Below are positions 26,556 through 58,031 of a DNA stretch of 64,000 nucleotides, one piece after another. The position numbers and the translations under genes are program-made. Source of the DNA: an uncultured Candidatus Saccharibacteria bacterium. Its GTDB lineage: Bacteria; Patescibacteriota; Minisyncoccia; Phycocordibacterales; JAKAEA01. The stretch covers positions 3,118 through 67,117 of the forward strand of contig CAZHGQ010000004.1 in the NCBI GenBank assembly GCA_964532205.1, given 5' to 3'. The notes below the pieces were generated by a model, which worked only from the letters and a program-made list of their open reading frames with translations, ran no database searches and had not been told where the DNA came from. Every line of letters begins with the position of its first letter. Position 1 is the stretch's first letter.

Positions 26556-26561
26556 ATTACT

Positions 26562-28154
26562 ATGAACCAAACTACTCCACGAATACTCTACATATACGCC
26601 AGAAAATCCTCTGAAAGTGAGGACCGGCAAGTTCAATCTATCGACGATCAGGTGAACCGCCTAAAGGAGCTGGCAAACAGTCTGGGAATCACTATCAAAG
26701 AGGTTCTGACAGAAGCTAAGTCTGCCAAGAAGCCGTATTGCCGACCAGTCTTCGATGACATGCTCAAACGCATTCAGCGAGGTGAGGCTGATGGCATTCT
26801 TTGTTGGCAACTTAATCGACTTTCTCGAAACCCCGTTGATAGCGGAGCTCTTAGCTGGATGTTGCAGCAAGGAGTTTTAAAATGTATTCAAACAATTGAT
26901 CGTCAATATTTACCTGATGATAACGTCCTTCTTTTTAGTGTTGAAAGTGGGATGGCAAATCAATTTATTATTGATCTTAAGAAAAACAGCATGCGAGGAA
27001 TGGTTGGAAAAGCTGATCGAGGTTGGCTACCCTCTCGTGCTCCGATGGGATATTTAAATGACAAACTCGAACATACAATCATCGAAGATAAGGACCGTTT
27101 TGATTTGGTCCGAAAGATGTGGGACGTGATGCTTACCGGCAATTACACTCCTTCTCAAATTTTAAAGACTGCAAATGATAAGTGGGGCTTTAGAACTCCC
27201 AAAACAAAACGAAGTGGTGGCGGTGAACTTGCCAACAGCATGATTTATAAGATATTCACCAACATCTTCTATACCGGCATGTTTGAATGGGCTGGAAAGC
27301 TGTATAAGGGCAACCATAAGCCCATGATTAGCCTTGAGGAGTTCGATCGGGTCCAAGCTATCCTGGGCCGAAACGGTAAGCCACGCGGCCAGACTCATGA
27401 GTTTGCATACACTGGCCTTATTTACTGTGAAGAATGTGGCTCGATGTATACCGCAAGTGAAAAAACCAAGTGGGTTGAAAGTGAAAAGAAGTTTAAAACA
27501 TATATTTACTATAACTGCACACGACGTAAGAAAGGAATCACCTGTACGCAAAGAAAACCGATTACGCTCGAAAAACTTGAGGAACAAGTAGACATTCAAC
27601 TTGAGCGATACAGCATTCTTCCTAAATTTAAAGATTGGGCTCTTGAGATTTTGAACAGAGAAAATAATAAAGAGATTGAGGACCGAACCAAGGTCTACGA
27701 GACACAGCATAAAGCAGTCGCCGAAACTCAAAAAGAAATCGACGCTCTTACCAAGATGCGTTATCGAGAATTGATTGATGATGAGACCTTTGTGAAAGAA
27801 CGTGACGATTTGAAAGCAAAACTTACCAAGTTAAAGGCCAATCTGCACAATACCGAAAACCGAGCCGAGAAGTGGCTAGAACTTACTGATAAGACATTTA
27901 ACTTTGCCTGCTATGCACGAGAAAACTTTAATTCTGGGACCTTGGAGAAGAAGCGAGAAATCTTTGCAGCACTTGGTTGGAACTTTTCAATAAAAGACAA
28001 AATAGTGAGCATTAAAGCCAATGATTGGTTTGTTCCAATAGAAAAAGCTTACCCAGAGCTTGAAGCTGAATATCGTCGGTTGGAACTACAAAAATACCTT
28101 TCAGCTGAGGCACGAAATGCTGCTTTTGCCTCACTCATTCTACGTTGGGGTTAG
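26562..28154 (+). CDS. Large serine recombinase rec1 (resolvase N-domain, recombinase domain, zinc ribbon, coiled coil)
   Basis: YARKSSESEDRQVQSIDDQ catalytic-Ser region. CEECGSMY...YYNCTRRKKGITC zinc ribbon. About 60% identical over the N-domain to 60008..61657. Stop codon lies inside the 268-bp inverted repeat. Confidence 0.85.
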   Translation: MNQTTPRILYIYARKSSESEDRQVQSIDDQVNRLKELANSLGITIKEVLTEAKSAKKPYCRPVFDDMLKRIQRGEADGILCWQLNRLSRNPVDSGALSWMLQQGVLKCIQTIDRQYLPDDNVLLFSVESGMANQFIIDLKKNSMRGMVGKADRGWLPSRAPMGYLNDKLEHTIIEDKDRFDLVRKMWDVMLTGNYTPSQILKTANDKWGFRTPKTKRSGGGELANSMIYKIFTNIFYTGMFEWAGKLYKGNHKPMISLEEFDRVQAILGRNGKPRGQTHEFAYTGLIYCEECGSMYTASEKTKWVESEKKFKTYIYYNCTRRKKGITCTQRKPITLEKLEEQVDIQLERYSILPKFKDWALEILNRENNKEIEDRTKVYETQHKAVAETQKEIDALTKMRYRELIDDETFVKERDDLKAKLTKLKANLHNTENRAEKWLELTDKTFNFACYARENFNSGTLEKKREIFAALGWNFSIKDKIVSIKANDWFVPIEKAYPELEAEYRRLELQKYLSAEARNAAFASLILRWG

Positions 28155-28414
28155 TCACTGCGCGCGACTCGATGCTTACTCTGCCCTCGGTAGGAATCGA
28201 ACAATTGGTAAAGGACAACGCCGCTCCACGGGTTCCTCACACCCCTCCAAGGGGGTGGAGGCCCACTACCTTCAAACCAGCGCTCTGTTGAGCGCTCATT
28301 CGTTCGTTGTGTTGAATTTGCCACCCCCGACTACCCGCCTCACGGCCCCTCACGGGGCTCACGCGGGTCACCCGGCTCACGCACCCGCACGCCGCTCAAC
28401 CACACGGGGTGGAG
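28147..28414 (+). repeat. 268-bp perfect inverted repeat, left copy (partner at 59561..59828)
   Basis: Compared base by base with the reverse complement of 59561..59828; identical over 268 bp. Confidence 0.85.
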
Positions 28415-28443
28415 TGAATACGCGAATCACAGCAGCGACATTA

Positions 28444-28461
28444 AGGACATTCAGATGTCCT
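28444..28461. promoter_or_regulatory. Perfect palindrome AGGACAT-N4-ATGTCCT about 130 bp upstream of the Pycsar-like effector gene; candidate operator
   Basis: Seen directly (aggacattcagatgtcct). Confidence 0.3.
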
Positions 28462-28588
28462 TTACCTGTACCACTACACGAGGTCAGCCACGCTACCTTC
28501 CAATGAAGAAAAGACACAGTCACCAAATCGCATTTGTCAATCTGAACTTCGCAGCAGTTTGAACGAATAAACACTATACTTACATCCC

Positions 28589-29497
28589 ATGATTGAGCGA
28601 TTCACGGGACCAAACGGCGGGGCAACGCTTAGTGACGCCATGTTGCAACAACGTATCGTCCAGCATGATGATGCGATTGCAAGGAAATTTATCGGATTAG
28701 GAACGCTGAATGAATACCAAGCTGGCAATGTGTTGATGGAACAGGCAGCCGCCGACGAAGCCGTTTTCTTCATTCTGGCTGGCGAAGTCAACGTTGAAGT
28801 AAATGGCCGGACCGTTGGTATCCGCACGGCTACTGAAACCGTGGGCGAAATTGCCGCCGTTGATCCCACTGCCCCACGGTCTGCAACCGTTCGCGCCGCA
28901 GGCGAAGTCGTGACGCTTCGCGTTGGGTCCGCTGACTTCATCAAAATTGCCGATGAACATCCCAAGGTGTGGAGAGCCACAGCACGAGTCATTGCTGATC
29001 GGCTCCGGCAACGGCATCGATTTCATCGTCCGCCTAATGCAAAGCCCATTCTGTTTGTGGGGTCTAGCGTCGAAGGGCTGGAAATCGCTAAGCACATCCA
29101 ACTTGGCATGAAGCATGACCCGGTAGAAGTTCGCATCTGGTCGAACGGGGTGTTCGGTCCTTCAAGCGTAACAGTCGACAAGTTACTTGCGCAAGTTGAC
29201 CAGTGCGATTTCGCCGCGTTTGTGTTCGGACCAGACGATCGCGTTGCGAGCAGGGACGAAAAATACGAAGCGCCTCGCGACAACGTTATTTTTGAAATGG
29301 GCATGTTTTTGGCCCGGCTTGGCTTGGACCGGACGTACATGGTGAAGGAACAGCGAACCGATTTGAAAATCCCCTCCGATCTTTTGGGGATTGCACCGTT
29401 GACATATGTTGCCGACGCCAAAACCAAAATCGACGTTACTCTCGGCCCCGTCTGCACGGAACTAGCTAAAAAATTGCGTGAATTGGGCTCAATCTGA
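28589..29497 (+). CDS. cNMP-binding domain fused to TIR-like/N-deoxyribosyltransferase-like effector domain (Pycsar effector-like)
   Basis: N-terminal cyclic-nucleotide-binding signature (FFILAGEVNVEVNG...VGEIAAV...RSATVRA). C-terminal ILFVGSS...FVFGPDD...NVIFEMGMFLARLG resembles the catalytic-Glu region of TIR/SLOG NADase-type domains. Confidence 0.65.
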   Translation: MIERFTGPNGGATLSDAMLQQRIVQHDDAIARKFIGLGTLNEYQAGNVLMEQAAADEAVFFILAGEVNVEVNGRTVGIRTATETVGEIAAVDPTAPRSATVRAAGEVVTLRVGSADFIKIADEHPKVWRATARVIADRLRQRHRFHRPPNAKPILFVGSSVEGLEIAKHIQLGMKHDPVEVRIWSNGVFGPSSVTVDKLLAQVDQCDFAAFVFGPDDRVASRDEKYEAPRDNVIFEMGMFLARLGLDRTYMVKEQRTDLKIPSDLLGIAPLTYVADAKTKIDVTLGPVCTELAKKLRELGSI

Positions 29498-29512
29498 AGA
29501 AGGATTACTGGA

Positions 29513-30205
29513 ATGGGACTAGCCGACGATCTCGAAAGCGAAGTGGCAGCTATTCTTCGCACCAAATGGGATGAGCGTGAGGGGCGCGTCGTTCCCGACA
29601 CAAACGACGTAAAACTTGGGAACGATGCTGTCACGCTCGATGGCACAGTTCTTTATGCCGACCTCGCCGACTCAACTGATTTAGTTATTGGTTACAAGCC
29701 TTGGTTCGCGGCCGAGATTTATAAGTGCTACCTGCATTGTGCCTCCAAAATCATCCGTGACGAAGGTGGTGTTGTCACCGCGTTTGATGGCGATCGTGTG
29801 ATGGCTGTATTCCTTGGGGACTTTAAAAACACGTCGGCTGCTCGCTGCGCCCTAAAGATTAATTACGCGGCTGCAAACATCGTCACTCCAGCAATTGAAA
29901 AGGAATATCCGAAAAGTCCCTACAAGGTACATCAATCTGTAGGAGTAGACACGAGTAAACTATTCGTCGCCCGAACAGGAATCCGTGGCTCAAACGATCT
30001 CGTCTGGGTTGGTCGCGCTGCCAACTACGCTGCAAAGCTCTGTTCGCTCCGGGAAGGTTTATACGCATCTTGGATTACCGATGCTGTCTACAGCATTATG
30101 GATGACAACGCCAAGTACAGTGATGGTAAGTCGATGTGGGAACAACGGACGTGGACGGCGCGGAACACAACTGTGTATCGGTCAAATTGGTGGTGGAAAC
30201 CCTAG
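29513..30205 (+). CDS. Minimal class III nucleotidyl cyclase (PycC-like)
   Basis: TVLYADLADSTDL and GDRVMAVF metal-binding and signature motifs of the CHD cyclase fold. About 230 aa with no regulatory domain. Confidence 0.65.
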   Translation: MGLADDLESEVAAILRTKWDEREGRVVPDTNDVKLGNDAVTLDGTVLYADLADSTDLVIGYKPWFAAEIYKCYLHCASKIIRDEGGVVTAFDGDRVMAVFLGDFKNTSAARCALKINYAAANIVTPAIEKEYPKSPYKVHQSVGVDTSKLFVARTGIRGSNDLVWVGRAANYAAKLCSLREGLYASWITDAVYSIMDDNAKYSDGKSMWEQRTWTARNTTVYRSNWWWKP

Positions 30206-30310
30206 AACCTCGTGTCCAGACCCCATTCCTGTCGCCGCTTTGAACATTACGTTTTCTGGCATCCATGTCCTACTACCCCGAATCTTCGATCACGTACCCG
30301 CTCCCCACCC

Positions 30311-30646
30311 CTAGAGTGCAGGTCCCAAACGAACAAGCACCAGCACGTCAACGTCGGGATCGATAGTGACACTGATCGGTTCATGCGCTTCCAGACGAAT
30401 AGTACCATCGTCATGGATGTCGATTTGGGCGACGCACAAGTCTGTTGCTTTTGAAATGAAGATTGTGCATCGCCAGTATCCTGCACATTCACGCCAAACG
30501 ACATCTAACTCCCGGCCGTCACGATGTTGTTGTGCAATCTCACAATCATCTCGCAGATGACACGCCAAGCTACCAAGCACGCTTGGACAGGACATATGCT
30601 GGCCAATGATCTGCTTGAGAATTGACACTTTCATGGGTCCAGCCAA
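30311..30646 (-). CDS. Hypothetical protein
   Basis: ORF 22 nt downstream of 30669..31058, same strand. Confidence 0.3.
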   Translation of the reverse strand: MAGPMKVSILKQIIGQHMSCPSVLGSLACHLRDDCEIAQQHRDGRELDVVWRECAGYWRCTIFISKATDLCVAQIDIHDDGTIRLEAHEPISVTIDPDVDVLVLVRLGPAL

Positions 30647-30668
30647 AAGAGATTAACGAACGGCATGC

Positions 30669-31058
30669 TCAGTCATCAATGACTTCCGGCTTTTGTGTTG
30701 GCTCGGCATCAACCCAGACCTTCCACGTCGCCATGATGTCTTCGTCCGCATCCTCAATATCCTTCAATACTCTCTCAAGCGGGACACCGGACTTGCGAGC
30801 AGCATCCAGAATCACTTTTGGAATCATCGCAGGTGGCAACGTCTTCTTCGGATCGGGTGCGACCACCTTCGCCACCTTCCCGATATACTTGTACTTGCCA
30901 TCAACAATGATCTCCGCTACCTCGCCCGGAACCGTTCGCGGCTCATGCTCATACGAAAAAAGAACAAGTCTAGCGGGGACACCATACGCCTGCTCGCCAT
31001 GATTTGCGGCCAGAGTGATTGCCCTGAACTGACTTGCCGTCACACGCACGGTAAACAT
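30669..31058 (-). CDS. Hypothetical protein
   Basis: ORF convergent with the cyclase gene. Confidence 0.35.
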   Translation of the reverse strand: MFTVRVTASQFRAITLAANHGEQAYGVPARLVLFSYEHEPRTVPGEVAEIIVDGKYKYIGKVAKVVAPDPKKTLPPAMIPKVILDAARKSGVPLERVLKDIEDADEDIMATWKVWVDAEPTQKPEVIDD

Positions 31059-31245
31059 CTTTGTATTGTGAGCTTCTGCTCAGCATCAATCAACCGCCAG
31101 TTCCCGAAGTAGCGCGTTCGTCATTTCTTCATCCCTTCCGCGCATAATGCCCCCTAACCCATGAATTCTCGTCGCATCTTCATTTTTTCCTTGATCTTTT
31201 TGCCCAGAAATCTATAGACAGATTTATCACTTCGCAGGAGGGCAT

Positions 31246-33669
31246 ATGTTGGATCGAAAATTCCGGATGCACGCTTTTCTCTCGCTGGCGGCGTTCTTAA
31301 GTAGCGCCAGCCTCGCCGACACCATCACCAACGACGGCACACTCACCGATCCCGTAACCAACACCGGCAGCAATGCGTTTCTAAACAACGGAACGATTCT
31401 CGCGCCAGTTCTCAATCAAGATGAAGCGACTTTCGAGAATCGCGTCACCGGCGTGGTTGGCTACGTTGAAAACACTTCCGCTGCGTATTTCAACAATCAA
31501 GGGCTCGTTAACTCCGTATTCGTCAATCGCGATTTCGCCACGCTTTTTAACACCGGGACAATCAACCAGCTTGAAAACTACTCCCTTGGATTCGTCAACA
31601 GCCAGAGGCAGATTACGCGATCAGTTTTCAACTACGGGCTTGGATCTTTAGGAATCGGCTCCTTTGCTACGGTCGGCGAGCATGTTTTTAACTACAGCTT
31701 TGGCAGCGTCAAGAACACCGGCAGGATCTACGGTCATGCATTCAATGATGGTTTGGGACGATTCCACAATGCCGGGATCGTCATGCAGAATGCGTACAAT
31801 GGCGGTCAGGGCACATTCGAGAACGCAGCAACAATCTCCGGCAACACCTATAACAGTGGGGGCGGATTCTTTCGAAATGATTCGGTCATTCATGGCTCAG
31901 TCTACAACTACAACTCCAGCGCCTTCGACAATTCCAACTCCGTATCCGCGATCAACGGCGACGTACACAACTATGATCAAGCTACGTTCAGGCACGCCAC
32001 CAAAATCAAAGGCAGCGTCTACAACGACGCCAGCTTTGCTGTCGTCCAGCCTACACCTTCCCAACCAGCTTTAATCAATGGAAACTTCTTCCAGAGTTCC
32101 AGTGGAAATCTCGTCCTCTCAATCAACTCGCAAAATGCATCAAGCACCAAGTTAGCAATTGCTGGCACTGCTAATTTTGCCGGGACCCTTACCGTCACGC
32201 ACGGTGATCTTGATCCTGCCATTGGGAGTCGATACCCACTCCTCTCGTATAAGGCCATCAGGGGGCATTTCGACACCCTTAACGGCTCCATCATCGACGA
32301 AAGCAAGTTCTTTGGTCTGGATTACCAAGACGCCAAACTCGACTTAATTACGCTCGCAACGCCCAAAAGACTTAATCGCGACGGCACATTCGGACATTTG
32401 ACCGACTCCACAAATCTCGGCAGCGGCCTGATTCTGATCACTCACGGACGTGGTAGCAATGTCGATGTCTGGGCAACGGGAATGGCGACTGCGATTCAAC
32501 AACAGATTTCCTCTCCGGACAATTGGGAGACCGCAACCTTTGACTGGAGAGATCTTGCCGCCCCACTTGACGCTCCGGAAGTCGCCCGCCGCGCTAATCA
32601 GATCGGTGATAGTCTGGCAAACTGGATGCGCGAGGAAGGACTGCACTTTAGTAACATTCACGGGTTAGCACACAGCGCGGGCGTGTGGCTCATCAATCGT
32701 TTCGGGGAAGAAGCGCCGCAAGCCGTTGGAGCGACTTTTGTTCACGATACCTTCTTCGATGCCTTTGTACCCTCAGACGGAGTTAGTGATTCTGGCCGAG
32801 AAATTTCGAATTTGGGGCAATTCGCCTCAATCGCTGAACAGTTTGTGGACCACCGTAAGAGCCTAGCATACGACACAAACGCGACGCTCGAATACGCGTC
32901 GAATATTGATGTGACCGGCGCCGACCCTGACTTCATCCATGTTCTCCACCGCACAGCTATGGTTCATGGTTGGCCTTATCGCTGGTACCAAGAGTCGGTC
33001 CTGAATCCATCGAATCCAAAATACGAGGGCGTCGGCTTTTTCCGTTCCGCGGAATTCCTTGGCTACAACCCCTCCATAGATAAAGCCGACATCGGCCAGC
33101 GAAAGTACCTTCCTTCATCGGTCTTCATCCGATCAGATTCTACTACCCCCGTTTCGCTGGATCTTATTCATATAATCGTTAGCGACCCCAACAAGGTGAA
33201 CGTCACTTCTGGCGTGCTCGAACTTAAGGCCACCAGCAATGCGCCGAATACATTGCCGCAGTTCGGGGAACCTCCTGCCGATGACGACGTGCCAACTGGT
33301 GATCCGACGCTCGCGACCTTGATCGCAACTCTCGACCAACCCGTAAACTCGTTGGTGTGCGATTTCAGCTTCTCGGGTGCGGGAGGAGGCTTGTATTCAA
33401 TCTACTTCAACGGCCACTTCGTCGCTCAGTACGACCAGCGATATATTGGCAACGACGTTGCTTCCACTGGACTACTGTTTCTTGGTCAGGAATATGAGCC
33501 AGGAACCTACACAATTCTGTTTCGCCTTGATCCGTACGACGGACTCGATTCATCTGTCAGCATTTCCAACCTCCGACTTGCAGGCCCCATTCCAGAACCG
33601 CAGACATTTTTGTTCTTGGCATTGCCGATGATGATTCGCATCCGTCTCCGCCGTCCTCCCTGTGCATAA
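31246..33669 (+). CDS. Secreted repeat-containing lipase/esterase with PEP-CTERM sorting signal
   Basis: Signal peptide. N-terminal G/N-rich beta-repeats. GLAHSAGV (GxSxG) in an alpha/beta-hydrolase-like region. C-terminus GPIPEPQTFLFLALPMMIRIRLRRPP (PEP motif, TM, basic tail). Confidence 0.6.
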   Translation: MLDRKFRMHAFLSLAAFLSSASLADTITNDGTLTDPVTNTGSNAFLNNGTILAPVLNQDEATFENRVTGVVGYVENTSAAYFNNQGLVNSVFVNRDFATLFNTGTINQLENYSLGFVNSQRQITRSVFNYGLGSLGIGSFATVGEHVFNYSFGSVKNTGRIYGHAFNDGLGRFHNAGIVMQNAYNGGQGTFENAATISGNTYNSGGGFFRNDSVIHGSVYNYNSSAFDNSNSVSAINGDVHNYDQATFRHATKIKGSVYNDASFAVVQPTPSQPALINGNFFQSSSGNLVLSINSQNASSTKLAIAGTANFAGTLTVTHGDLDPAIGSRYPLLSYKAIRGHFDTLNGSIIDESKFFGLDYQDAKLDLITLATPKRLNRDGTFGHLTDSTNLGSGLILITHGRGSNVDVWATGMATAIQQQISSPDNWETATFDWRDLAAPLDAPEVARRANQIGDSLANWMREEGLHFSNIHGLAHSAGVWLINRFGEEAPQAVGATFVHDTFFDAFVPSDGVSDSGREISNLGQFASIAEQFVDHRKSLAYDTNATLEYASNIDVTGADPDFIHVLHRTAMVHGWPYRWYQESVLNPSNPKYEGVGFFRSAEFLGYNPSIDKADIGQRKYLPSSVFIRSDSTTPVSLDLIHIIVSDPNKVNVTSGVLELKATSNAPNTLPQFGEPPADDDVPTGDPTLATLIATLDQPVNSLVCDFSFSGAGGGLYSIYFNGHFVAQYDQRYIGNDVASTGLLFLGQEYEPGTYTILFRLDPYDGLDSSVSISNLRLAGPIPEPQTFLFLALPMMIRIRLRRPPCA

Positions 33670-33710
33670 ACCAATTGATAGGCTGCAATGTTTAATTATA
33701 TGATATACGC

Positions 33711-34049
33711 ATGTACGTTTTTACCGCCGTTGTTCTTACCGTAAGCTCCGCTTGTCTGCTTACGTTTATTCTTATCTGGCTCACTGGCGATTTGTTCAGC
33801 TTCATATATTACGCGGCAACTCAGCATCTTGGGGGTGTTTTCGTTGCCGCGACACTATTTGGCGTTCTTATGCATTACGCCACACGTCGTTTCGTACGTC
33901 GCCGATATTTACCAACAATTCTCAGTAGCGCTGTGGCACTCGCGATCCTCTCTTTCTTTGCAGGCTGGATGCTTCTAAGCAGCCACTTTGACGATGTTCC
34001 AAGTATTACGACTACCATCGCCTACCTTCTGAATACTCATCTGCCCTAG
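33711..34049 (+). CDS. Small integral membrane protein
   Basis: Three to four hydrophobic helices. Confidence 0.4.
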   Translation: MYVFTAVVLTVSSACLLTFILIWLTGDLFSFIYYAATQHLGGVFVAATLFGVLMHYATRRFVRRRYLPTILSSAVALAILSFFAGWMLLSSHFDDVPSITTTIAYLLNTHLP

Positions 34050-34206
34050 CGGTATTACGCACTGTCCAGATTGCTCCTAGGTGATAATTCTCGCTCTTCA
34101 ATCTCTCAACTGCGTCGTTGATTACCTGTCGCCAAGTTGCATCAGACTTTGCATGTCCAGCACAAACGCGCTAATTTACCGCTGGTCGGACTGAATTGGG
34201 GTCATC

Positions 34207-34929
34207 ATGTCACTTCGCGTCAAACGGGCTACGCCCGACGTGATCGTTTCGCACTGGTGCAAACTGATTGAGAACTTCTCGTTCTCATCTCGAACCTTTT
34301 ACGAGAAGCTGGACCAAGCCATCAGCAAACGCCAGATTCCCAACATAAACAGCGGTCAGATCCATTGGCCGGAAGGAAGCGTTCTTTCTGCCAAGCGAAT
34401 CTATCTTCGCCTGGTACGCGAACGCCTCGTCATCGACATTTGTGCGGCACCATTTGGCACGGGCTTCTTTGTGTCATGGAGATTGGGAGAGATTCGCCTT
34501 CGTGTCAGCTTCTTCCTGCTCTTCCTGCTGCTGTGTTCCTGCTATTGGCTGTATGGAAGCATCTATGATCGATATAGCTGGGACATTTATCGTTTTCGCC
34601 ACCGATATCCGGGTGAATTCCTGGGCATCATTGTCGCAGTGGTTGCAGTGTTCTTTCTGATCTTGTTCTTCCTACGCCAGGTTGTTGCCTCCGGGCTATC
34701 CGATCTTGATGCAGTGTTATTGCGCATCCCTATCCTCGGCCCATTCTACGAACGTTTCCTGCGACCCATCACCTACTACCGCATCGACTTGATGCTCGCG
34801 TATCAGGAAGCGGTGCATCAGGCGGTGCTGGAGGTGGTCGATGAAATCACCACCACCGGTGGGATCAAACCTCTCAGTGAATTGGAGCGCCGTCCCATTC
34901 TCACCGAACTGTACAAACGCAGGCGATGA
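34207..34929 (+). CDS. Membrane protein; stop lies 6 nt before the large HerA/FtsK-like ATPase start
   Basis: Three or more TM helices. 6-nt spacing to the next gene. Confidence 0.45.
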   Translation: MSLRVKRATPDVIVSHWCKLIENFSFSSRTFYEKLDQAISKRQIPNINSGQIHWPEGSVLSAKRIYLRLVRERLVIDICAAPFGTGFFVSWRLGEIRLRVSFFLLFLLLCSCYWLYGSIYDRYSWDIYRFRHRYPGEFLGIIVAVVAVFFLILFFLRQVVASGLSDLDAVLLRIPILGPFYERFLRPITYYRIDLMLAYQEAVHQAVLEVVDEITTTGGIKPLSELERRPILTELYKRRR

Positions 34930-34935
34930 GCGGCT

Positions 34936-37900
34936 ATGTCAGCGTATCTTTCCATCGATGAGCAACTTGCCCAGGAGTTTTACGATTGGGAACTCATTGG
35001 TCGGGGCTGGCAGGTGTGGGACGACCCGGTATCGCCAGAACCGCCGTTCCGACCATTCATTCGGAAGATGCCGCAATGCAGTCGTTCTGATGATGGCAGA
35101 GATCACAGTCTTCTGAGTGGTGTTATTGCTCGGCTTGCCAGACTCTTCGCCGGTCGACCCAACCTGCCTGTGGAACCCGAACCCACTTGGACACCGCTTC
35201 GGATCATCCATGATCCGCCACCCGTGGTGGAACTTGCGCTCGTCCCGCCTGCGGATTTTGATGCTTCGCAGCAGATGATGGCTCAACTGCTTGCTTCGCT
35301 TGCGATGGCGAATCATCCAATCGCATTTGAGATTCTCGCGAGCCAGAACACGATAGTATCGCAGTTCGCCGTTGCACAGAGTGATGCATCAGCAGTACGC
35401 AGTCAGATTCAGGCCCACTTTCCCGAAGTCGCGTTGAGTCAACAGACGAACGTTTTGAAGGATCGATGGGACGCTTCAGGTGAAGCCTCGCTCATCTTTG
35501 AGATCGGTCTCTCGCAGGAGTTCATGCGCCCGCTGCCCGTCCCGCCCAAACTCACGCCTGATGTGCTGGTCAGTGTCATGGGAGCAATGGAGGAAGTGTC
35601 CACCGACGAACTAGCGCTCATGCAGATGATCTTTGAGCCCGCCCGTTATCCGTGGGCAGCGAGCATGCTGCGAGCGGTGACCTTCAATGACGGCAGCGAA
35701 TTCTTCGATGCATCGGAAAGTGTACTCGATGAGACAAAGGAAAAACTCTCCCGTCCTTTGTATGCCGCCGTCATTCGACTGGCGGTTAAGACCGCCGATG
35801 AAGCTCGCACGTTCGAAATCGCCCGTTCCTTAACCGCTTCGCTCACCGCAGGTTTTCAAGGCTATGGCAATGACCTGATAGCTTTAAGCAATGATGAGTA
35901 TGATCCAGACGATCACGAGTTTGATACCCTTCATCGCCAGTGCCGACGCAGCGGCATGATCCTCAACAGCGATGAACTGGTGAACTTTGTTCACATACCT
36001 TCTTCCGCTGTACGCACCTCGAAGTTTACCCGGCAACTCAAACGCACCAAACGCGCTCCCGCCATTGCTGCTGGCAGAGATTGTGTTTTGGGTGAGAACT
36101 TCCACGCCGAACATACCATTCCTGTGGGTGTGGCTGCGGAAGAGCGCTCCAGACACATGCACCTCATCGGTGCATCCGGCACGGGAAAGTCGCAGTTGCT
36201 TTTGAACCTCATCGTGCAGGACATGGAACATGGCAAAGGCTTGGGGCTTCTCGATCCGCACGGCGATCTCGTGGACGACGTGCTTTCTCGCGTGCCCGAA
36301 GATCGAATTGATGATGTTGTGCTGCTGGATCCATCCGATGAGACGCACACCGTTGGCATCAACATCCTTTCTGCTAGAACCGAAGTCGAGAAAACCGTCC
36401 TCGCGTCGGATCTAGTAGCTGTGTTCCAACGACTCGCGACTAGTTGGGGCGATCAGATGACTTCAGTGCTTGGGAACGCTATCCTCGCGTTTCTGGAGCG
36501 TCCGCAGGGAGGTACGCTTGCCGATCTTCGACGCTTTCTCATCGAACCCGCGTATCGCAACGAAGTGCTTTCTTCCGTCACCGACCCGGAAGTCATCTAT
36601 TACTGGAAGAAGCAATTCCCCCTCATTCGCGGCATGCCGCTTGGCTCTGTGCTCACCCGACTCGACACGTTCCTGCGTCGCAAACCGATTCGGCAGATGG
36701 TCTGCCTCAAAGAAAAAGCTTTGGATTTCGCGGATATCATGGATCGCGGCAAGATTTTCCTCGCTCGCATCCCTCAGGGTTTGGTTGGCGAAGAGAATGC
36801 TCACCTTTTGGGCAGCTTGCTGGTGTCCAAGTTCTATCAACTGGCAATGGTGCGACAGCAGAGCGCCGCATCTCACCGCCGCGATTTCTATCTTTACATC
36901 GATGAGTTCCACCATTTTGTCACGCCGTCGATGTCATCCATTCTCTCTGAAGCGCGAAAGTATCGCTTGGCATTGATTTTGGCTCATCAGGAATTGCGGC
37001 AACTGGAAAGTCGCGGTGTGGATCTTTCGAGCGCCGTTCTTTCTCATCCGTATACCCGCATCTGCTTTCGTGTCGGAGATCAGGATGCCAAGCGTTTGGC
37101 GGAAGGGTTTTCGTTCTTCACCGCGGCGGATTTGCAGAGTTTGAGCACCGGTGAAGCCATCTGCCGCATGGAACGGTCGAATTACGATTTCAATCTTCGC
37201 ACAAAGCTTCTGCCAGAATTGGAATGGCAACGGGTTGAGGAAAAAAGAAGGAGTGTCATCGAGCGGTCGCGAGACCAGTTTGCTGTTTTGCGGAGTTCGC
37301 TAGTGGATGCCACGTCACTTACGACGGAGAGCTTCACCGCGGAGGAGATTGCGGAGCCAGAGGTCGAACCAATCATTGTGGAGCCGAAACCGGAGACTCC
37401 CGCACCGGCACCACGTCCAATCGCAAAGCCGCCGAAAGTGAAGCCGCTGGCGGATGAGCCCGCGAACCTGGGACGCGGCGGACCCGAACATCAGTATCTG
37501 CAACAACTCATAAAGCAGTGGGCGCAGGGTATGGGGTATCGAGCTTCTATTGAGGCGCCGTTGCCGGAGGGCGGAAGTGTCGATATCGCCTTGGAAAAAG
37601 GCAATCACCGCATCGCCTGCGAAACCAGTGTCACCAATACGCCCGCATACGAGGTCAGCAATATCCGCAAGAGTCTGGTCGCGAAGTATCAATACGTCGC
37701 GGTTGTGACGACCGACCTCAAGCACCGCGAGAAGATCGAAGCGGCGGCGGAGCAGTCATTAACTGACGCGGAGCTGAAGCAGGTGCGATTCTTCTCCCCC
37801 GACGAACTCTTCGCGTTTGTTCAAGAGTTGGAGGTAAACGACGCGAAGCAGGAGCGGCTGGTGTGCGGATACAAAGTGAAGACCTCGGTGCGCTCCACCG

Positions 37901-37986
37901 ACGCACAAGATCAAGCGATGCGGCAGCAGGCGATTGCCCAGGTCGTCGCTCGTTCGGTGACGCGGATGCGGAAAAAGAAACAGTAG
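34936..37986 (+). CDS. Large HerA/FtsK-superfamily ATPase (DUF87-like) with Pro-rich linker and C-terminal PD-(D/E)xK-like or DNA-binding domain
   Basis: Walker A GASGTGKSQ, Walker B IDEFHHF, ARKYRLALILAHQ (HerA-type arginine-finger region). Paralogous ATPase core to 53398..54690. C-terminal GGSVDIALEKGNHRIACE. Confidence 0.6.
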   Translation: MSAYLSIDEQLAQEFYDWELIGRGWQVWDDPVSPEPPFRPFIRKMPQCSRSDDGRDHSLLSGVIARLARLFAGRPNLPVEPEPTWTPLRIIHDPPPVVELALVPPADFDASQQMMAQLLASLAMANHPIAFEILASQNTIVSQFAVAQSDASAVRSQIQAHFPEVALSQQTNVLKDRWDASGEASLIFEIGLSQEFMRPLPVPPKLTPDVLVSVMGAMEEVSTDELALMQMIFEPARYPWAASMLRAVTFNDGSEFFDASESVLDETKEKLSRPLYAAVIRLAVKTADEARTFEIARSLTASLTAGFQGYGNDLIALSNDEYDPDDHEFDTLHRQCRRSGMILNSDELVNFVHIPSSAVRTSKFTRQLKRTKRAPAIAAGRDCVLGENFHAEHTIPVGVAAEERSRHMHLIGASGTGKSQLLLNLIVQDMEHGKGLGLLDPHGDLVDDVLSRVPEDRIDDVVLLDPSDETHTVGINILSARTEVEKTVLASDLVAVFQRLATSWGDQMTSVLGNAILAFLERPQGGTLADLRRFLIEPAYRNEVLSSVTDPEVIYYWKKQFPLIRGMPLGSVLTRLDTFLRRKPIRQMVCLKEKALDFADIMDRGKIFLARIPQGLVGEENAHLLGSLLVSKFYQLAMVRQQSAASHRRDFYLYIDEFHHFVTPSMSSILSEARKYRLALILAHQELRQLESRGVDLSSAVLSHPYTRICFRVGDQDAKRLAEGFSFFTAADLQSLSTGEAICRMERSNYDFNLRTKLLPELEWQRVEEKRRSVIERSRDQFAVLRSSLVDATSLTTESFTAEEIAEPEVEPIIVEPKPETPAPAPRPIAKPPKVKPLADEPANLGRGGPEHQYLQQLIKQWAQGMGYRASIEAPLPEGGSVDIALEKGNHRIACETSVTNTPAYEVSNIRKSLVAKYQYVAVVTTDLKHREKIEAAAEQSLTDAELKQVRFFSPDELFAFVQELEVNDAKQERLVCGYKVKTSVRSTDAQDQAMRQQAIAQVVARSVTRMRKKKQ

Positions 37987-38032
37987 CGTCCAGCATAGTT
38001 GACTATTTTCTCATCGCCTTTGGTGGTCAATT

Positions 38033-38257
38033 ATGATAGACTATCCGGCGATGACTCACGAGCAATTGCTGAAAGTGGTTTGCCGCCGGATGAAGCGTCT
38101 GGACATGACACCGTACCGTTTGCATCAGGAACTCAACGGTAAGGTTTCAAAGCAGACGGTCTACAACTTCATCGAGCATGGCAGGCACGTCACCACGGAG
38201 ACACTCGTGGCGATTCTTTCGGTGCTCAAGCTTTCGATCAGCGAACCGGACGAATAG
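38033..38257 (+). CDS. XRE-family HTH DNA-binding protein
   Basis: SKQTVYNFIEHGRHVTTETLVAILSVL. Confidence 0.6.
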   Translation: MIDYPAMTHEQLLKVVCRRMKRLDMTPYRLHQELNGKVSKQTVYNFIEHGRHVTTETLVAILSVLKLSISEPDE

Positions 38258-38266
38258 GAGGCGATC

Positions 38267-39850
38267 ATGATTGCACGCACGTCGTACGAGATTCACAAAC
38301 CGGTGGGCATCTGGATTCGCGTCTCGACTGAAGACCAGGCCCAGGGTGATAGTCCTGAGCATCATGAGAAGCGTGCCCGCTATTACGCCGAATCCAAAGA
38401 GTGGGACGTCAAAGAGGTGTATCACCTGGAAGGTGTGAGTGGAAAGACGCTCATGGGGCATCCCGAGACACGCCGAATGCTCGAAGACATCCGCACCGGG
38501 AAGATTCGCGGGTTGATCTTCTCCAAGCTCGCCCGTCTCGCCCGCAATACCAAGGAACTCTTGGAGTTCGCCGATATCTTCCGCGAACACAACGCGGATT
38601 TGATTTCTCTTCAAGAATCGATTGATACCTCCACACCCGCAGGCCGTCTCTTCTACACCATGATTGCAGCGATGGCGCAGTGGGAACGGGAGGAGATCGC
38701 GGATCGCGTGAAGGCATCGATTGCCATCCGAGCTAAGCTGGGCAAGCCGTTAAGCGGCAGACCGGCATTTGGATATACACTTAAGGATAAGAAGGTCGTT
38801 CCCCATCCCACCGAAGCCCCGGTTCGCAAGCTCATCTATGAATTATTTGCCGAGCATCGCCGGTACAAGACGGTGGCGAGGCTGCTCAACGAGTCCGGGT
38901 ATCGCACCCGAAGCGGTGGACTCTTCTCCCATTCCACCGTTGAACGACTCATTGACGATCCAACCGCTAAAGGCGTGTATCGCACAGCGTTCACTGAGAA
39001 GATCAAAGGCAGAAGCTGGGTAAGCCAGAAGCCGGAGAGCGAATGGACGACGATTGCGGTTGAGCCCATCGTTTCTGAGGAGTTGTGGGAACAGTGCCAC
39101 AAGTTGCAGGCAGAGCGGTACCAACCTCGCAAGCGTCCAGGCAAACGTCCGGTGCATCTGTTTGCAGGATTGGCGTACTGTGAATGCGGCAAGAAGATGT
39201 ATGTCCCGTCCAACACGCCCAAGTACGTCTGTCAGGCCTGCCGCATCAAGATTCCCATCGTGGACTTAGAGAATGTCTTTATTGAACAACTCAAAGGTTT
39301 CTTCCTATCCCCCGATCAACTTGCAACGCATGTCGAATTGGCAGATGACAACATCCGAGAAAAGCACAAGCTTCTTGAGGTGCTTCAATCGGAAGCGGAC
39401 AAGCTTCAAGCCGAGATTGACAAGACCTACCAACTCTATCTGGAAGGACAGTTATCCACCGAAGGCTTCGGCAAGTTCTACAAACCCCTGGAAGACCGGC
39501 AGAAGCAACTTGGGGAGGAGCTACCCAAGCTCCAAGCTGAGCTTGACCTGCTGCGGATTAATGGCATTTCCGCTGATCTCGTCATGACTGAAGCCAAGGA
39601 CCTCTATGCCCGCTGGAAGGATTTAGACAAAGACGAGAAGCGCCGAGTCATTGAATCTCTTACCGATCGGATCACGATCGGAAAGGAGGCGATAGACATA
39701 AGTCTTTGCTTTCGCCCCTCCTATGAAGAAATGACAAATAGGCAACGCGAGCTTGTCATGGCGTTACCTATTTGCCACCTCAAGCTAACTCATCGAATCG
39801 TCGAGAGTTGTGTAAAACCGAAGATCCCGAGCATGATACAATCGAGGTAA
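38267..39850 (+). CDS. Large serine recombinase rec3 (distinct subfamily from rec1/rec2)
   Basis: IWIRVSTEDQ catalytic Ser. Recombinase domain. CECGKKMYVPSNTPKYVCQAC zinc ribbon. Coiled coil. Confidence 0.85.
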   Translation: MIARTSYEIHKPVGIWIRVSTEDQAQGDSPEHHEKRARYYAESKEWDVKEVYHLEGVSGKTLMGHPETRRMLEDIRTGKIRGLIFSKLARLARNTKELLEFADIFREHNADLISLQESIDTSTPAGRLFYTMIAAMAQWEREEIADRVKASIAIRAKLGKPLSGRPAFGYTLKDKKVVPHPTEAPVRKLIYELFAEHRRYKTVARLLNESGYRTRSGGLFSHSTVERLIDDPTAKGVYRTAFTEKIKGRSWVSQKPESEWTTIAVEPIVSEELWEQCHKLQAERYQPRKRPGKRPVHLFAGLAYCECGKKMYVPSNTPKYVCQACRIKIPIVDLENVFIEQLKGFFLSPDQLATHVELADDNIREKHKLLEVLQSEADKLQAEIDKTYQLYLEGQLSTEGFGKFYKPLEDRQKQLGEELPKLQAELDLLRINGISADLVMTEAKDLYARWKDLDKDEKRRVIESLTDRITIGKEAIDISLCFRPSYEEMTNRQRELVMALPICHLKLTHRIVESCVKPKIPSMIQSR

Positions 39851-40738
39851 ATGACGTCTACAAGAGGTGGGGTGAATATTGAACTTCAAGTACGCGATAT
39901 CGCGCTACTTCGTGACCTTTTTGAATCTCGATTCATGGCACTCCGGCACATCGCGGGCCTACATTTTGACTCTCGGCACGAGCCAGCCCGAAAACGAGTA
40001 TCTCTACTTTGCAGTGCAGGATACATCCGGGTGAGGGCACGCCACTTTAACGAACCTGCGCTGTACTTCTTGACCGCGCGCGGCATGCGACTTCTTTCGC
40101 AATACGGCCACTTAGGATCGTATCCTCATCTGTCTCGCGCGGTCTTGCAGAAGCGACTTGAGATAAGTTCACTAACTCTCCGGCATGAGCTCGATGTGCT
40201 GGATGTCAAAACGGCATTTGTGAACGCGACAAGATCAAACGCCAAACTCCGCATCGCAACCTTCTCAACGTGGCCGAAACTGCATTCCTTTCAAATGCTT
40301 TCAAGCGACGGGTCTGAAGTCATCGTAAAGCCTGATGGGTATATCGTCGTCCAAGAACCGCGTGCCGATTGCCCGCTTGTCATCCATCGATTCTTCCTTG
40401 AAGTCGACCGAAGCACCGAATCGCTTCGGGTCATTGACACGCGATGCAACGCATACGTCGACTATTACCGCAGCGGGGGCTTCGCTGTCGCAAACGGATT
40501 GTCATTCGACGATTATAAGCGTTTCCCATTCCGCGTTCTGATCATCACCAAGAGCGAAGAACGCCTGCAAAACATCGCCGACCGGATAAGCAAGACCGCT
40601 GGATCTCAGATTTGGCTTACGACACAGCGCGATTTCATAATCGGTTCGCTTGGGCAGATTTGGCGCTTGGTGAAACACGGCCACACTAACCAGCCGAACG
40701 ATCACAAGTCGCTCTTCATCACCCGCACCAATTTTTAA
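39851..40738 (+). CDS. Replication-relaxation (Replic_Relax) family protein
   Basis: N-terminal wHTH (DIALLRDLFESRFMALRHIAGL) and FFLEVDRSTE core motif. Confidence 0.6.
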   Translation: MTSTRGGVNIELQVRDIALLRDLFESRFMALRHIAGLHFDSRHEPARKRVSLLCSAGYIRVRARHFNEPALYFLTARGMRLLSQYGHLGSYPHLSRAVLQKRLEISSLTLRHELDVLDVKTAFVNATRSNAKLRIATFSTWPKLHSFQMLSSDGSEVIVKPDGYIVVQEPRADCPLVIHRFFLEVDRSTESLRVIDTRCNAYVDYYRSGGFAVANGLSFDDYKRFPFRVLIITKSEERLQNIADRISKTAGSQIWLTTQRDFIIGSLGQIWRLVKHGHTNQPNDHKSLFITRTNF

Positions 40739-40762
40739 CCAACAGTGGATAGCAACTACTAC

Positions 40763-41092
40763 TCATCTACTGGAGTGCAGTTCCTTCAGACCTGCTCGCG
40801 CATCATCGGCCTCCTTATCCAATCCTTCTGTCTCTGCCAGGGGGATTACCCTCTGAAACATTTCGATCGCTTCGACTAAGCGTCCGAGATCTTTCATCAA
40901 GCATGCGAGGCAATAGAGAATCTGCACCCGATCGTAGGTATCTTCTTCTTGTTCAGCCTTAAGCAAAGCTTCGCGAAGTTGATTTTCTCCATCAGTGGTA
41001 CGGCCACGATCGAGTAGCAGTAGTGCTTTATTGAACATGTCACGTGCATTCATTTTATCTCCCATACATTCTAATGAAGTTGCGAGAAGCAC
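40763..41092 (-). CDS. TPR-like small protein; candidate immunity protein for the upstream Rhs toxin
   Basis: Helical TPR-like repeats. Immediately downstream of the toxin gene, overlapping it by 38 nt. Confidence 0.4.
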   Translation of the reverse strand: MLLATSLECMGDKMNARDMFNKALLLLDRGRTTDGENQLREALLKAEQEEDTYDRVQILYCLACLMKDLGRLVEAIEMFQRVIPLAETEGLDKEADDARAGLKELHSSR

Positions 41093-44000
41093 GTGGTACT
41101 AAATACATCTCAGAGAGGAGTTTGACTTGCCTCTCGATGTCCGCAACTCCAAAATTCGGATTTGCGTTGGCGAAAAGTTCCCACTGCTTGTTCCACTCAG
41201 GGTGCAGTGTCTTGTGGAGTGCGTAAGGTATTTCTGTAATCCGTTGATCTACGAACTTGCGCGGGTCATAGCCGAGAGCTCGGAGCCGATTGCTGAAAGT
41301 GGAATTCTTGAGCAGTTGCTGCGGCACAAGATGATGTTGCCTCATTGCCGCTGGTCCGTAGCGTGCACGGTAGCCTGATGTATTTCGTACCATGCCGCTC
41401 GGCGTCGATCCGGACAATGAATAAACTGCAGTTGAGCCAACTCCGACCACACCGCCCCAGTTGACCGCAGCCCCACTAAAGACGCTTGCAGCAGTTGAAC
41501 CACCGCCCATCACTGAAGCAACAGTTTGACCACCGATAATGGACAGCGCTGGTGGAGGTGTCCGGCTAAAGAGCATCAACGCGCCCTGGGCGCCTTCATC
41601 GGCGTATCGCAACGCCGTGGTCGAGAACCGGCTAATCGCGCCGGGGAACGAACCGGCCAGAGCGCCGATGTTCGTGCCGACCTCCACGCTCTTCCAGTAG
41701 TCCGCTCCTGTCGATGCGGAATAGATCGCGCCACCAGCGCCGCCGACCGCTGTTCCTGCAGCGAGATACCAAAGCGCAGAAGTGCCACCTGACGCTACGG
41801 TCAACGCGACTGTGCCGGCCCATCCGGAAATCTTCGCTAGATGATATGGATCGGCATTCCACTCCGCAGATGGCCGGAACGCGTCATATTTACCCGAGAA
41901 ATCCGTCCACGCATCGAGTGTGCTTGGATTGCTCCATTGTCCTTGTGTTCCGGCGAAACCATCCTTCTCCTGCACGCCCGTCCATTCGACGTTTTTGCCA
42001 TCAAAGAATCCACCGGCGGTATAGCTTTGGTAGGCGTAGCCATCTTCTGTCTGCGGCGTGCCGCGGTAGCTGTCGTGCTCGGTTTGGTTGGGCATCCAAA
42101 GCATGCCGTCACCATCATCACGACCGCCACGCCAAAGGTAACGGAAGCGGTAACCGTCGCTAGACGTGGACCTGCCGTATTGATCGACTTTATAATCAAA
42201 GGTGCTGGTTCCTGTGGATTGACCGACTGCAACCTGTCCTTCTGTTGTGTATGTGTACATCTCACGGTTGATCGCCAAACTTGTAAAATCTTCGCGGATG
42301 CGCCAGACGCTGCCATCGGGTCCGCTGTACACCCAGACACGACTACCATCATCATTGTCTCGAAGCACCATCCGTCCGGGTTCACCGGCGCTCCAGACAT
42401 ACTGATTCTGGGGCTGAGTGCGATACGTGCCGTCAATCTGCTCTTGTTTCTCTTCAATCACATTGCCAGCGGCGTCATAGAACAGGTGCAGCGTGCCCTG
42501 ATATCCCGTGACCTCTTGCGTGCTGTTGGTCTCGGAGATGCGTCGTCCAAGCGCATCGTAGTCGAATGTCAGCGTGTGCGCATTGGGAATATCGTAAGCG
42601 TATTGGTATTGAGAATTCCCCGGATCGGCGAAGATCTCGTCGAGCTTGACTGTCGTCTTGCTTGCGAGCCGACCCAACCCGTCATACTGAACAAAGACAT
42701 CAATGCGCTGATCGATATTATCGACAGGTGTTGATTGAATCGGGCTATTGCCGGTTGGCACTGGGCGCTGGAACACTAAACGTGCAGGTGGATCAAAGGT
42801 GTTTGTCCCGCTTCGGTCGCGTGTCAGGACACTGGCATCGATGATGTTATCCCAATTCTGCGATGAGATTGGCAGCGGATCACCATCGGAATCGGTCGTG
42901 ACGGAAGGCGCGTTGAGGCTGGTCAATCTTCCGCGTTTGTCGCTGCCTGTATTCAGCCAGTAAGTGAAATTCCCTGGATAGTCTCCATCACCGCGGACGA
43001 ACGACTGAACTCTGCCCAACTGGTCATATACCTGATTCGCCGGCGCGCTGCCCGAGCCATACAACTCGCTTCTCCACCGTCCGTTGAAGTTGTCTTGGCT
43101 ATCAAGCCAAGAGTAAAGAACATTCCCATCAGCGTCGTAGCCATAAGCACGTTGTTCGAGGCCGACGTCATGAATGACTACGCGCCCAAACCGATCGAGC
43201 CCGCCATATTGATCGTTGACGCGACCTGCATCGTCGGCGACCTGGTTCCAATCCATTGTCACTGCTGATGCAGGATCGAGATCATAAATGTATGTCGTAC
43301 CTTGAAATGATACGGCCACGCCGCCAGCACTAAGCACACGCGGCATATTACGTTCGACAATGCGATTCAAGCCAAGATACTCGTAACGTTCCAGCCGGTC
43401 GTTGTTTACGGCGGTGGATGGATCACCATCGACCATGAATCCAACTCTGCTGATCCGATCGTTGAGCACTCGGCTGAAGTTCACGAGCGTACTGCTGGTC
43501 GTGTAGTCTTGATATCCATACACCACGCCCACTTCGCGGCCATCGGGATAGACTGTCTTTGCAAGACGGGTGAGATTGTTTCCAAAATCGGTGGTGTAGA
43601 CGTATTGAACCTTTTGCGATGGAGTCCCTCCTGTACGAGCGACCGATGTCTTGTGTTCCTGCCATTCTGTTACGAGATTGCCAAGCCCGTCGAAGTCCCG
43701 GATCACTTGATTCTTGACCGTTGTTCCAGAATCGAGCGTTGTAAATTCAATTCCCCGGCTGAGTGCATCGAATCGTGTGCGAATCTTCTGACCACGATCC
43801 AACATGTTGGCCGGTTTCGATGCGGCATCGATCCACTCCGTCAGCGTCAGTCTGCCAAGTGTGTCGTAGTTGAATCGCTGCTCGCGAATCTGTTTCTGCG
43901 TAGCCGACGTGCTGAGGTTGTAGATTTCCTCTTTCTGTTGCCTGTTTTCGCCCAATGCGGTATAGCCGGTCATCACCTCGCGATGCCCTGATCCAGAGTA

Positions 44001-48764: not shown

Positions 48765-49056
48765 AGACCCCGACCGAATTGTCTTTGCTTTGATTAACCC
48801 TTTTGTGCCCCGGCGTGTCGCGACTCCCGTTGCGAACAGCGCGCCGGGTTACTTCTCGAATTCAATAGACCAATATGATCAAGCTACGTCAAGATAATTT
48901 TCAGTTAAGACAACTTCATTGAATTTGCTTCGACAGTGTTTCAGGATCGTATCCCCGCCTTGCGCCACAGAACACATCGTGCGAAAATCAAATCAGAATA
49001 TCGCAGCGTCAATTGTCGCGTGTTTGATTCTCAATCTCACATTGAAAGGAGACTTC

Positions 49057-49374
49057 ATGGCCCGCACTCGAAAGCCAACCAGTTCGTCCGAGCCACTCAT
49101 TTCGCAGACGCCACCAGCGGAAGCTACAAACAAGCCAGTGCATACCATTCGCTATGGCGCGGTCAAAGCTACTGTGTGGCAGAACGACAGCGAGAATGGA
49201 ATTTTTCATACCGTGACTGTAAGTCGAAGCTGGCGAGACGATAAAGACCAATGGCACGACTCGCAGTCGTTCCATTTCAAAGAGCTGCCACAGTTGTCAA
49301 AAGCTGTCAACGACGCCCACTCTTGGATCGCGTGGCAAGAGCGGAGAATGGCAGACGCGGCGAAAACGAAGTAA
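49057..49374 (+). CDS. Hypothetical protein (start moved to Met with AAGGAG RBS)
   Basis: aaaggagacttcATG. Followed by a terminator. Confidence 0.4.
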   Translation: MARTRKPTSSSEPLISQTPPAEATNKPVHTIRYGAVKATVWQNDSENGIFHTVTVSRSWRDDKDQWHDSQSFHFKELPQLSKAVNDAHSWIAWQERRMADAAKTK

Positions 49375-49398
49375 GGCTGCTTGCAGCACACCTCCATT

Positions 49399-49424
49399 AG
49401 CCAGGCATCACCCTGGCTTTTGTT
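49399..49424 (+). terminator. Rho-independent terminator (agccagg...cctggct then T-run)
   Basis: Hairpin plus tttgttt. Confidence 0.65.
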
Positions 49425-49524
49425 TAAATGAAAAACCGCTGGCTGATTGAGAGGGGGAAACTCAACCGGGGACGCCAGCGGCAACAGCAATCTATCCATT
49501 CACCTGCGTTGACACAACAAAAAG

Positions 49525-49917
49525 CTAGAAATCTTCGGGCAAGAGAACGGTGGTCACCGAGCGGTCCGCTTCGGTGATGATCCAGAGCTTCACCCCGCAG
49601 CGATCCGTGTAGACCGACAGCAATCGCATCCCTTCCTTCAGCGCGAGATCATTCTCCCTTCGGTCTGATTCGCAGACCTCTCCCCAATCTCCTCTCACAT
49701 GACGAGCTAGGCAACTTGGGATGTCTTCTGGATGCAACTTGTCCTTCGCACTGGCAGTGATAACGCACTGCCCCACTGGAAACAATGATAGCGGCATGAT
49801 GGACTCCTGAGTTTGGATGGATGTAGAAACGATCTTCCTTGAGCGTATGACAGGAATTGATCGCGCGCAACCGTTGGCTGTGGGTAAGAAGACCGCCTTG
49901 ACCGGGCTCAAACACAA
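49525..49917 (-). CDS. Conserved hypothetical plasmid/element protein (HVRGDWGEV...DRREN...WIITEADRS motifs)
   Basis: ORF with distinctive motifs; function unknown. Confidence 0.4.
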   Translation of the reverse strand: MCLSPVKAVFLPTANGCARSIPVIRSRKIVSTSIQTQESIMPLSLFPVGQCVITASAKDKLHPEDIPSCLARHVRGDWGEVCESDRRENDLALKEGMRLLSVYTDRCGVKLWIITEADRSVTTVLLPEDF

Positions 49918-58029: not shown

Positions 58030-58031
58030 CC

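Follow-up and report, generated by a model that had tools for sequence, protein, structure and literature searches.

What do the two adjacent genes at positions 28589-30205 of this 64,000-nucleotide stretch of DNA (contig CAZHGQ010000004.1, assembly GCA_964532205.1; hereafter the window) encode, and on what kind of element do they lie? A first interpretation made from the letters and their translations (hereafter the sequence-only reading) had proposed a Pycsar-like defence module at the edge of a high-GC element, that is, a nucleotide cyclase paired with a TIR-like effector that senses cyclic nucleotides, possibly as a variant of the known system. The core of this proposal is borne out and can be stated more strongly, since both genes match PADLOC profiles for PycTIR and PycC over their full length and the pair is canonical. 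With high confidence, we interpret the two genes as an intact anti-phage operon, a Pycsar system of the PycTIR type, in which the cyclase PycC would produce cyclic UMP (cUMP) and the effector PycTIR would sense it and abort infection through an NADase activity, the whole being cargo of an element integrated at a tRNA-His gene in a genome of the Paceibacterota, within the candidate phyla radiation (CPR).

The two open reading frames (ORFs), ORF1 (302 amino acids) and ORF2 (230 amino acids), start with ATG, lie on the same strand and occupy the positions first reported for them (Table 1). The motifs originally quoted from their translations are all present, NVIFEMG at residues 232-238 of ORF1, YADLADST at residues 48-55 and GDRVMAVF at residues 93-100 of ORF2. 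The 15-nt spacer that separates them contains a Shine-Dalgarno-like AAGGA motif at 29500-29504, 8 nt ahead of the ATG of ORF2, and this short spacing suggests that the two genes, hereafter pycTIR and pycC, are co-transcribed.

ORF2 encodes a full-length, clade-B-type PycC, a stand-alone class III-like nucleotidyl cyclase. The protein covers both PADLOC PycC profiles end to end (PDLC00766, E = 3e-102, profile positions 1-231 of 232; PDLC02367, 8.4e-97), and its residues 2-228 align with the uridylate cyclase BcPycC of Burkholderia cepacia (7R65) at 53% identity (2.3e-62), followed by weaker PDB matches (~1e-4) to ordinary class III cyclases, among them 5X4T and 3R5G. No sensory, regulatory or partner domain was found in ORF2 with Pfam, in agreement with the regulatory-domain-free class III cyclase recognized at the outset. 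Homologues of this cyclase number more than 7,700. The window protein was aligned with the cyclases of 80 related genome loci, which are the loci with the closest cyclases, and across these 81 sequences residues Y48, D50, D92, D94 and R95, equivalent to Y50, D52, D94, D96 and R97 of BcPycC, show no variation or almost none. They include the catalytic metal-binding Asp pair (D50 and D94, corresponding to D52 and D96), which is invariant. BcPycC belongs to clade B and recognizes UTP through Y50, D94 and R97 (Hou et al., 2024, PMC11224242), residues that are kept here as Y48, D92 and R95. Given the 53% identity to this cUMP-making enzyme and the conservation of its UTP contacts, the product of PycC is probably cUMP.

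ORF1 encodes a full-length PycTIR that joins a cyclic nucleotide-binding domain (CNBD) to the TIR domain defining the PycTIR/Cap12 family. It matches two PADLOC PycTIR profiles over their full length (PDLC02371, 4e-100; PDLC00731, 1e-110), and a PDB search aligns its residues 2-296 with the PycTIR structure 8JSJ (E = 1.2e-43, 30.5% identity). The CNBD, already noticed in the translation, is recovered by Pfam as PF00027 (cNMP_binding, residues 42-124, 7.9e-12), and residues 1-145 align without a gap with the CNBD of cUMP-bound PsPycTIR (8JSK, 1.7e-21). In an alignment of 54 PycTIRs, composed of the window protein and 53 proteins taken from the 80 loci, G86, E87 and R97 of the ribose/phosphate cassette and the base-stacking R138 are present in the window protein and invariant, and S98, the counterpart of S98 in PsPycTIR, is conserved in 46. 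A89, another ribose/phosphate contact, is also conserved in the window protein in the ungapped alignment to 8JSK. The contact and stacking roles of these residues are those described for PsPycTIR (Hou et al., 2024, PMC11224242).

The C-terminal half matches PF10137 ("CAP12/Pycsar effector protein, TIR domain", residues 156-273, 2e-27) and the TIR domains of Cap12 chains (9LMQ, 4.4e-22, 42.5% identity; 7UN8, 3.3e-16). Within NVIFEMG, which had been singled out as a catalytic-Glu-type motif, E236 has as its aligned counterpart in 8JSJ, 9LMQ and 7UN8 the Glu of RDNV(V/H)(F/L)E(F)G, and this position is Glu in 53 of the 54 PycTIRs. The Pfam models put forward by the sequence-only reading fared unevenly: cNMP_binding was matched, canonical TIR and TIR_2 gave no match in ORF1, even at E<=1, and PF10137 was found instead. 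That reading had also described the effector domain as N-deoxyribosyltransferase-like and therefore as a possible variant, a description that does not hold: neither a Pfam family of this kind (Nuc_deoxyrib_tr) at E<=1 nor a corresponding PDB structure at E<=0.01 matched ORF1, whose domain is the TIR of PycTIR and Cap12. A single-sequence AlphaFold2 model of PycTIR had a mean pLDDT of 39.5, too low to be used.

The position of the effector gene ahead of the cyclase gene had likewise been taken as a possible variant, and here too the relatives point the other way. In 57 of the 80 loci, the PycTIR gene lies immediately upstream of the cyclase gene (same strand, gap <300 nt), with 6-151 nt between them, and in none is it downstream. 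In the nearest metagenomic relatives (cyclases 81% and 73% identical), a 302-aa PycTIR lies 12-14 nt upstream, and an annotated Xanthomonas plasmid also presents a CNBD-TIR gene followed by a cyclase gene. Nine PycTIR-less loci were tested, and in eight of them a PycTM/2TM effector of ~120-220 aa is immediately upstream; the ORF upstream of the cyclase in one PycTIR-less locus, L019, had no match. Two further loci, L017 and L045, have PycTIR ~750 nt upstream of the matched cyclase. In L017 (4243-6699), a second PycC stands in between (PADLOC PycC, 1.1e-92), giving the order PycTIR-PycC-PycC; in L045 (4286-6690), an ORF of the same size occupies that place. Effector-first order is the norm for this clade. 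A PycTIR-PycC pair was also found in another CPR genome, that of an Uhrbacteria member (L076), so that Pycsar in CPR bacteria is not unprecedented.

The closest known systems show both resemblances and differences. The Pycsar system of B. cepacia LK29 (BcPycC, 7R65, with BcPycTIR; Tal et al., 2021, as summarized in PMC11224242) likewise pairs a single-domain, ~230-aa clade-B-type cyclase with a CNBD-TIR effector. Besides the end-to-end identity, the window cyclase has in common with BcPycC its N-terminal helix region, together with the Asp pair that binds metal and the residues that read UTP; it differs by 47% sequence divergence, and its operon, known here from sequence, differs by its CPR host and by its integrative carrier. 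The effector shares with PsPycTIR and NpPycTIR (8JSK, 8JSJ) its length, its architecture, an N-terminal extension starting with MIERF and containing R4, the G86/E87/R97/S98 set, R138 and the catalytic Glu, whereas overall identity to these proteins is just 30-32%. Loci of the PycTM type (e.g., L005 and L008) have cyclases 63-65% identical to that of the window, the same effector-first order and partly homologous carrier genes; unlike the window effector, a CNBD-TIR protein, theirs is a 2TM protein of ~170 aa.

By analogy with the characterized homologues (Hobbs et al., 2022, PMC9117128; Hou et al., 2024, PMC11224242), infection would activate PycC, which would convert UTP into 3',5'-cUMP. This signal would bind the N-terminal CNBD of PycTIR, and cUMP-bound PycTIR would dimerize and assemble into filaments, thereby switching on the NADase of the TIR domain, with Glu236 as the putative catalytic residue. 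The resulting depletion of NAD+ would abort the infection and provide the defence phenotype.

Several observations weigh against this interpretation. First, ORF2 reached no Pfam model, Guanylate_cyc included, although the sequence-only reading had named that family; an absent match of this kind is usual for a divergent cyclase family, reflects that divergence and says nothing against a cyclase. Second, promoter and terminator scans returned nothing beyond shuffled expectation, and no promoter was identified. Third, the window PycTIR has His143 where PsPycTIR has Asn143, a specificity determinant that reads N3/O4 of uracil and whose replacement (N143A/S) abolishes activation (PMC11224242). Fourth, the inter-dimer salt bridge R12-E114 used in the PsPycTIR filament (PMC11224242) corresponds to A12 and S114 here; R12 is found in 26 and E114 in 45 of the 54 PycTIRs. 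Together, His143 and A12/S114 imply that ligand reading and oligomerization may differ in detail from those of PsPycTIR. Finally, a preprint describes Pucsar, a Pycsar offshoot that makes cGMP and uses TIR and TM effectors (bioRxiv 10.64898/2026.08.12.744502, 2026). No PucC or PucTIR chain was among the PDB matches to ORF1 or ORF2.

The alternative that survives best draws on these points. It retains the architecture and changes the signal, the PycTIR of the His143 subclade and its cyclase using cCMP or cGMP instead of cUMP. His143 is indeed also present in L081, L083 and L084, which are the nearest relatives (70-84% identity), and Pucsar offers an example of a cGMP-based offshoot with TIR effectors. 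Against it stand the resemblance of PycC to a cUMP-making enzyme, with all three UTP contacts conserved, and the behaviour of position 143 itself. This column, read from the gap-free RLRxR-X segment, contains N in 33, S in 7, G in 7, A in 3 and H, E, R and T in one each of the 54 PycTIRs, while the partner cyclases, of the clade-B type, keep their UTP-reading residues. Because those residues are invariant while column 143 varies freely, position 143 is not a reliable marker of specificity in this clade. Asn143 marks the characterized proteins and does not define the family, and His143 lowers our confidence in the label "cUMP-specific", not in the label "PycTIR". Moreover, on general chemical grounds, His can act towards uracil as a hydrogen-bond donor and as an acceptor. 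We therefore regard a signal other than cUMP as quite unlikely.

Two other explanations fall far behind the PycTIR-type Pycsar operon. The pair could be a housekeeping cyclic-nucleotide signalling module, in which a regulatory cyclase and a cyclic-nucleotide receptor would have no part in immunity, and the RefSeq names of the homologues ("adenylate/guanylate cyclase domain-containing protein" and "cyclic nucleotide-binding domain-containing protein", and no others) are generic enough to accommodate it. The receptor, however, has as output domain a PycTIR/Cap12 NADase TIR with the catalytic Glu, both proteins match Pycsar-specific profiles over their full length, the cyclase is devoid of sensory or partner domains, and the two genes belong to an element that was acquired horizontally and that a related genome lacks, all of which makes this explanation extremely improbable. 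Cap12/TIR-STING of CBASS is an NADase activated through ligand-induced filament formation, and the window effector shares with it (7UN8, 9LMQ) the PF10137 TIR subfamily, the TIR domains being 42% identical. That the operon is a CBASS (Cap12) or another TIR-based system merely resembling Pycsar, as the NCBIfam Cap12 models matching its TIR domain (1.2e-31, 110 bits) and the PDB Cap12 chains might suggest, is nonetheless hardly credible, since the Cap12 matches are limited to residues 152-282 and score 110 against a curated cut-off of 450 bits, the sensor is a CNBD where Cap12 has STING, and is not SAVED either, and the adjacent enzyme supplying the signal is PycC, class III-like, and not a CD-NTase.

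GC content is 0.40-0.42 before ~28150, rises to 0.51-0.55 up to ~61000 and then falls back. Homology to a related Paceibacterota genome (L085, GCA_046350795.1) breaks off at 28151 (…TTGGGGT) and is found again from 61633, within tRNA-Leu, and the GGGGT of the tRNA-His 3' end is found at both junctions (28147-28151 and 61525-61529). L085 displays the empty site: the large serine recombinase of a low-GC metal-resistance element, which is 84% identical to that of the window over 18725-28151, directly abuts tRNA-His, followed by tRNA-Leu, rplS, rluA and tRNA-Val. The break in homology and the repeated GGGGT identify the high-GC segment as an insertion at tRNA-His (Table 1). The edge location first proposed for the operon is thus correct: it is the leftmost cargo of the element and starts 437 bp inside the left junction, next to the GC step at ~28150. 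Defence cargo typically resides on mobile elements.

Table 1. Coordinates of the Pycsar operon, its functional sites and its carrier element in the window.
Feature	Position	Strand	Basis
pycTIR, Pycsar effector (N-terminal extension, CNBD and TIR NADase domain)	28589..29497	+	PADLOC, PDB 8JSJ
N-terminal extension and CNBD, predicted nucleotide sensor, residues 1-145	28589..29023	+	PF00027, 8JSK alignment
His143 codon, site of the uracil-reading Asn143 of PsPycTIR	29015..29017	+	gap-free alignment
TIR domain, CAP12/Pycsar type, residues 156-273	29054..29407	+	PF10137, Cap12 structures
Glu236 codon, putative catalytic Glu of the TIR NADase, in NVIFEMG	29294..29296	+	structure alignment
Spacer with AAGGA ribosome-binding-like motif	29498..29512	+	sequence reading
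pycC, single-domain Pycsar pyrimidine cyclase, clade-B type, 230 aa	29513..30205	+	PADLOC, 7R65
Active-site stretch of PycC (Y48, D50, D92, D94, R95)	29654..29797	+	alignment to 7R65
Carrier, ~52%-GC, 33.4-kb integrative element at the tRNA-His 3' end	28152..61524		L085 comparison, GGGGT, GC
Large serine recombinase, right end of the element, reads into tRNA-His	60008..61657	+	Pfam Resolvase, Recombinase, Zn_ribbon_recom
tRNA-His(GTG), integration target, right junction	61525..61598	-	ARAGORN, Rfam

Both flanks of the element are Paceibacterota/Parcubacteria (CPR) DNA, from a genome of ~42-45% GC. On the left, the Cu-ATPase (21720-24116) shares 86-98% identity with proteins that are all from Paceibacterota/Parcubacteria where the source is named; on the right, the best named relatives of RluA (62374-63099) belong to the same groups. 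A chimeric assembly was considered as the origin of the GC step and judged unlikely, given CPR flanks on both sides and a break at the 3' end of tRNA-His beside a serine recombinase.

Besides the operon, the cargo of the element comprises two T4CP/HerA-like ATPases, a Replic_Relax gene, a primase and the serine recombinase at the right end, which shares 31% identity with that of the neighbouring low-GC element (26562-28154). A third large serine recombinase (38267-39850, + strand) is located halfway along the high-GC element, directly upstream of the Replic_Relax gene (39851-40738), and could belong to a nested or composite element. A 2569-aa ORF (41055-48764, - strand), whose sole Pfam match is RHS_repeat (6.8e-08), may encode a giant protein of the polymorphic-toxin type. 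An 822-aa AAA_15/AAA_21 ATPase (OLD/AAA_15 type; 54910-57378, - strand) weakly matches the defence ATPases AriA, Old, GajA and PtuA, the best at 1e-16; an unannotated 190-aa ORF (57302-57874, - strand) adjoins it, and the element may hold a second defence gene here. The 807-aa protein encoded at 31246-33669 (+ strand) has no Pfam match and ends in a C-terminus (…PIPEPQTFLFLALPMMIRIRLRR…) that by eye resembles a PEP-CTERM sorting signal, a feature that would be in keeping with a Gram-negative donor and not with the CPR host.

The 437-bp non-coding stretch to the left of pycTIR contains a 9-nt tandem repeat (CTCACGCGG) at 28349-28382, with 3.8 copies and 80% matches. The tRNA-like appearance of 28170-28290 was dropped, Rfam having no match there: a search of 28000-31300 at E<=1 gave no match, and three tRNAs were the only Rfam matches in the whole window. 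At the right junction, tRNA-His is by eye ~70% identical to its counterpart in L085 (5794-5867), tRNA-Leu and tRNA-Val being 91-93% identical, and part of the tRNA-His gene may come from the inserted element.

The low-GC serine-recombinase element stands in tandem at the same tRNA-His and spans ~12000-28151. In addition to its recombinase, preceded by an HTH_36 gene (25608-26555), it carries copper/heavy-metal genes (the P-type ATPase at 21720-24116, DsbD_2/HMA at 19128-20147 and DUF305 at 20419-21063) and a type II restriction-modification pair on the - strand at 15636-18813, made up of a restriction endonuclease (15636-17609; PADLOC REase_II, 6e-94) and a cytosine methyltransferase (17578-18813; MTase_II, 2.7e-87). 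The corresponding position in L085 is occupied by a NERD-domain gene together with an ORF of 534 aa, which indicates that cargo has been swapped within the element. At the nucleotide level the element is 84% identical to L085, L086 and L088, above the 63-71% of the core genes rplS and rluA, and this excess suggests a recent spread among CPR lineages.

Relatives of the high-GC carrier extend further. In L005, a metagenome-assembled genome of the Phycisphaerales (1-9200), and in L008, another metagenome-assembled genome, PycTM-PycC pairs are flanked by homologues of the carrier genes, including a T4CP-like ATPase; amino acid identity to the window element reaches 67% and 46% for the HerA-like ATPase and 42% for the right-end serine recombinase. 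These shared genes point to a related element family that carries Pycsar across phyla.

As a defence system, the operon adds nothing conceptually: it is an ordinary, canonical and apparently functional representative of an already well-described type, one that PADLOC or DefenseFinder would call, with thousands of homologous operons in the same order. One side aspect of modest value is that the published determinant of uracil specificity, Asn143, is variable across natural PycTIRs and provides a hypothesis for mutagenesis. A stronger reading, which we find unlikely, would see the His143 subclade reading a signal other than cUMP or contacting cUMP differently and, separately, a functioning abortive-infection module brought into a CPR episymbiont with a small genome by a tRNA-His-targeting serine-recombinase element with relatives in Planctomycetota. 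What the locus offers is a documented nucleotide-signalling abortive-infection system carried into a Paceibacterota genome on an element of foreign composition whose insertion site can be mapped precisely. This setting, although of modest value, is relevant to the question of how immunity reaches ultra-small symbionts.

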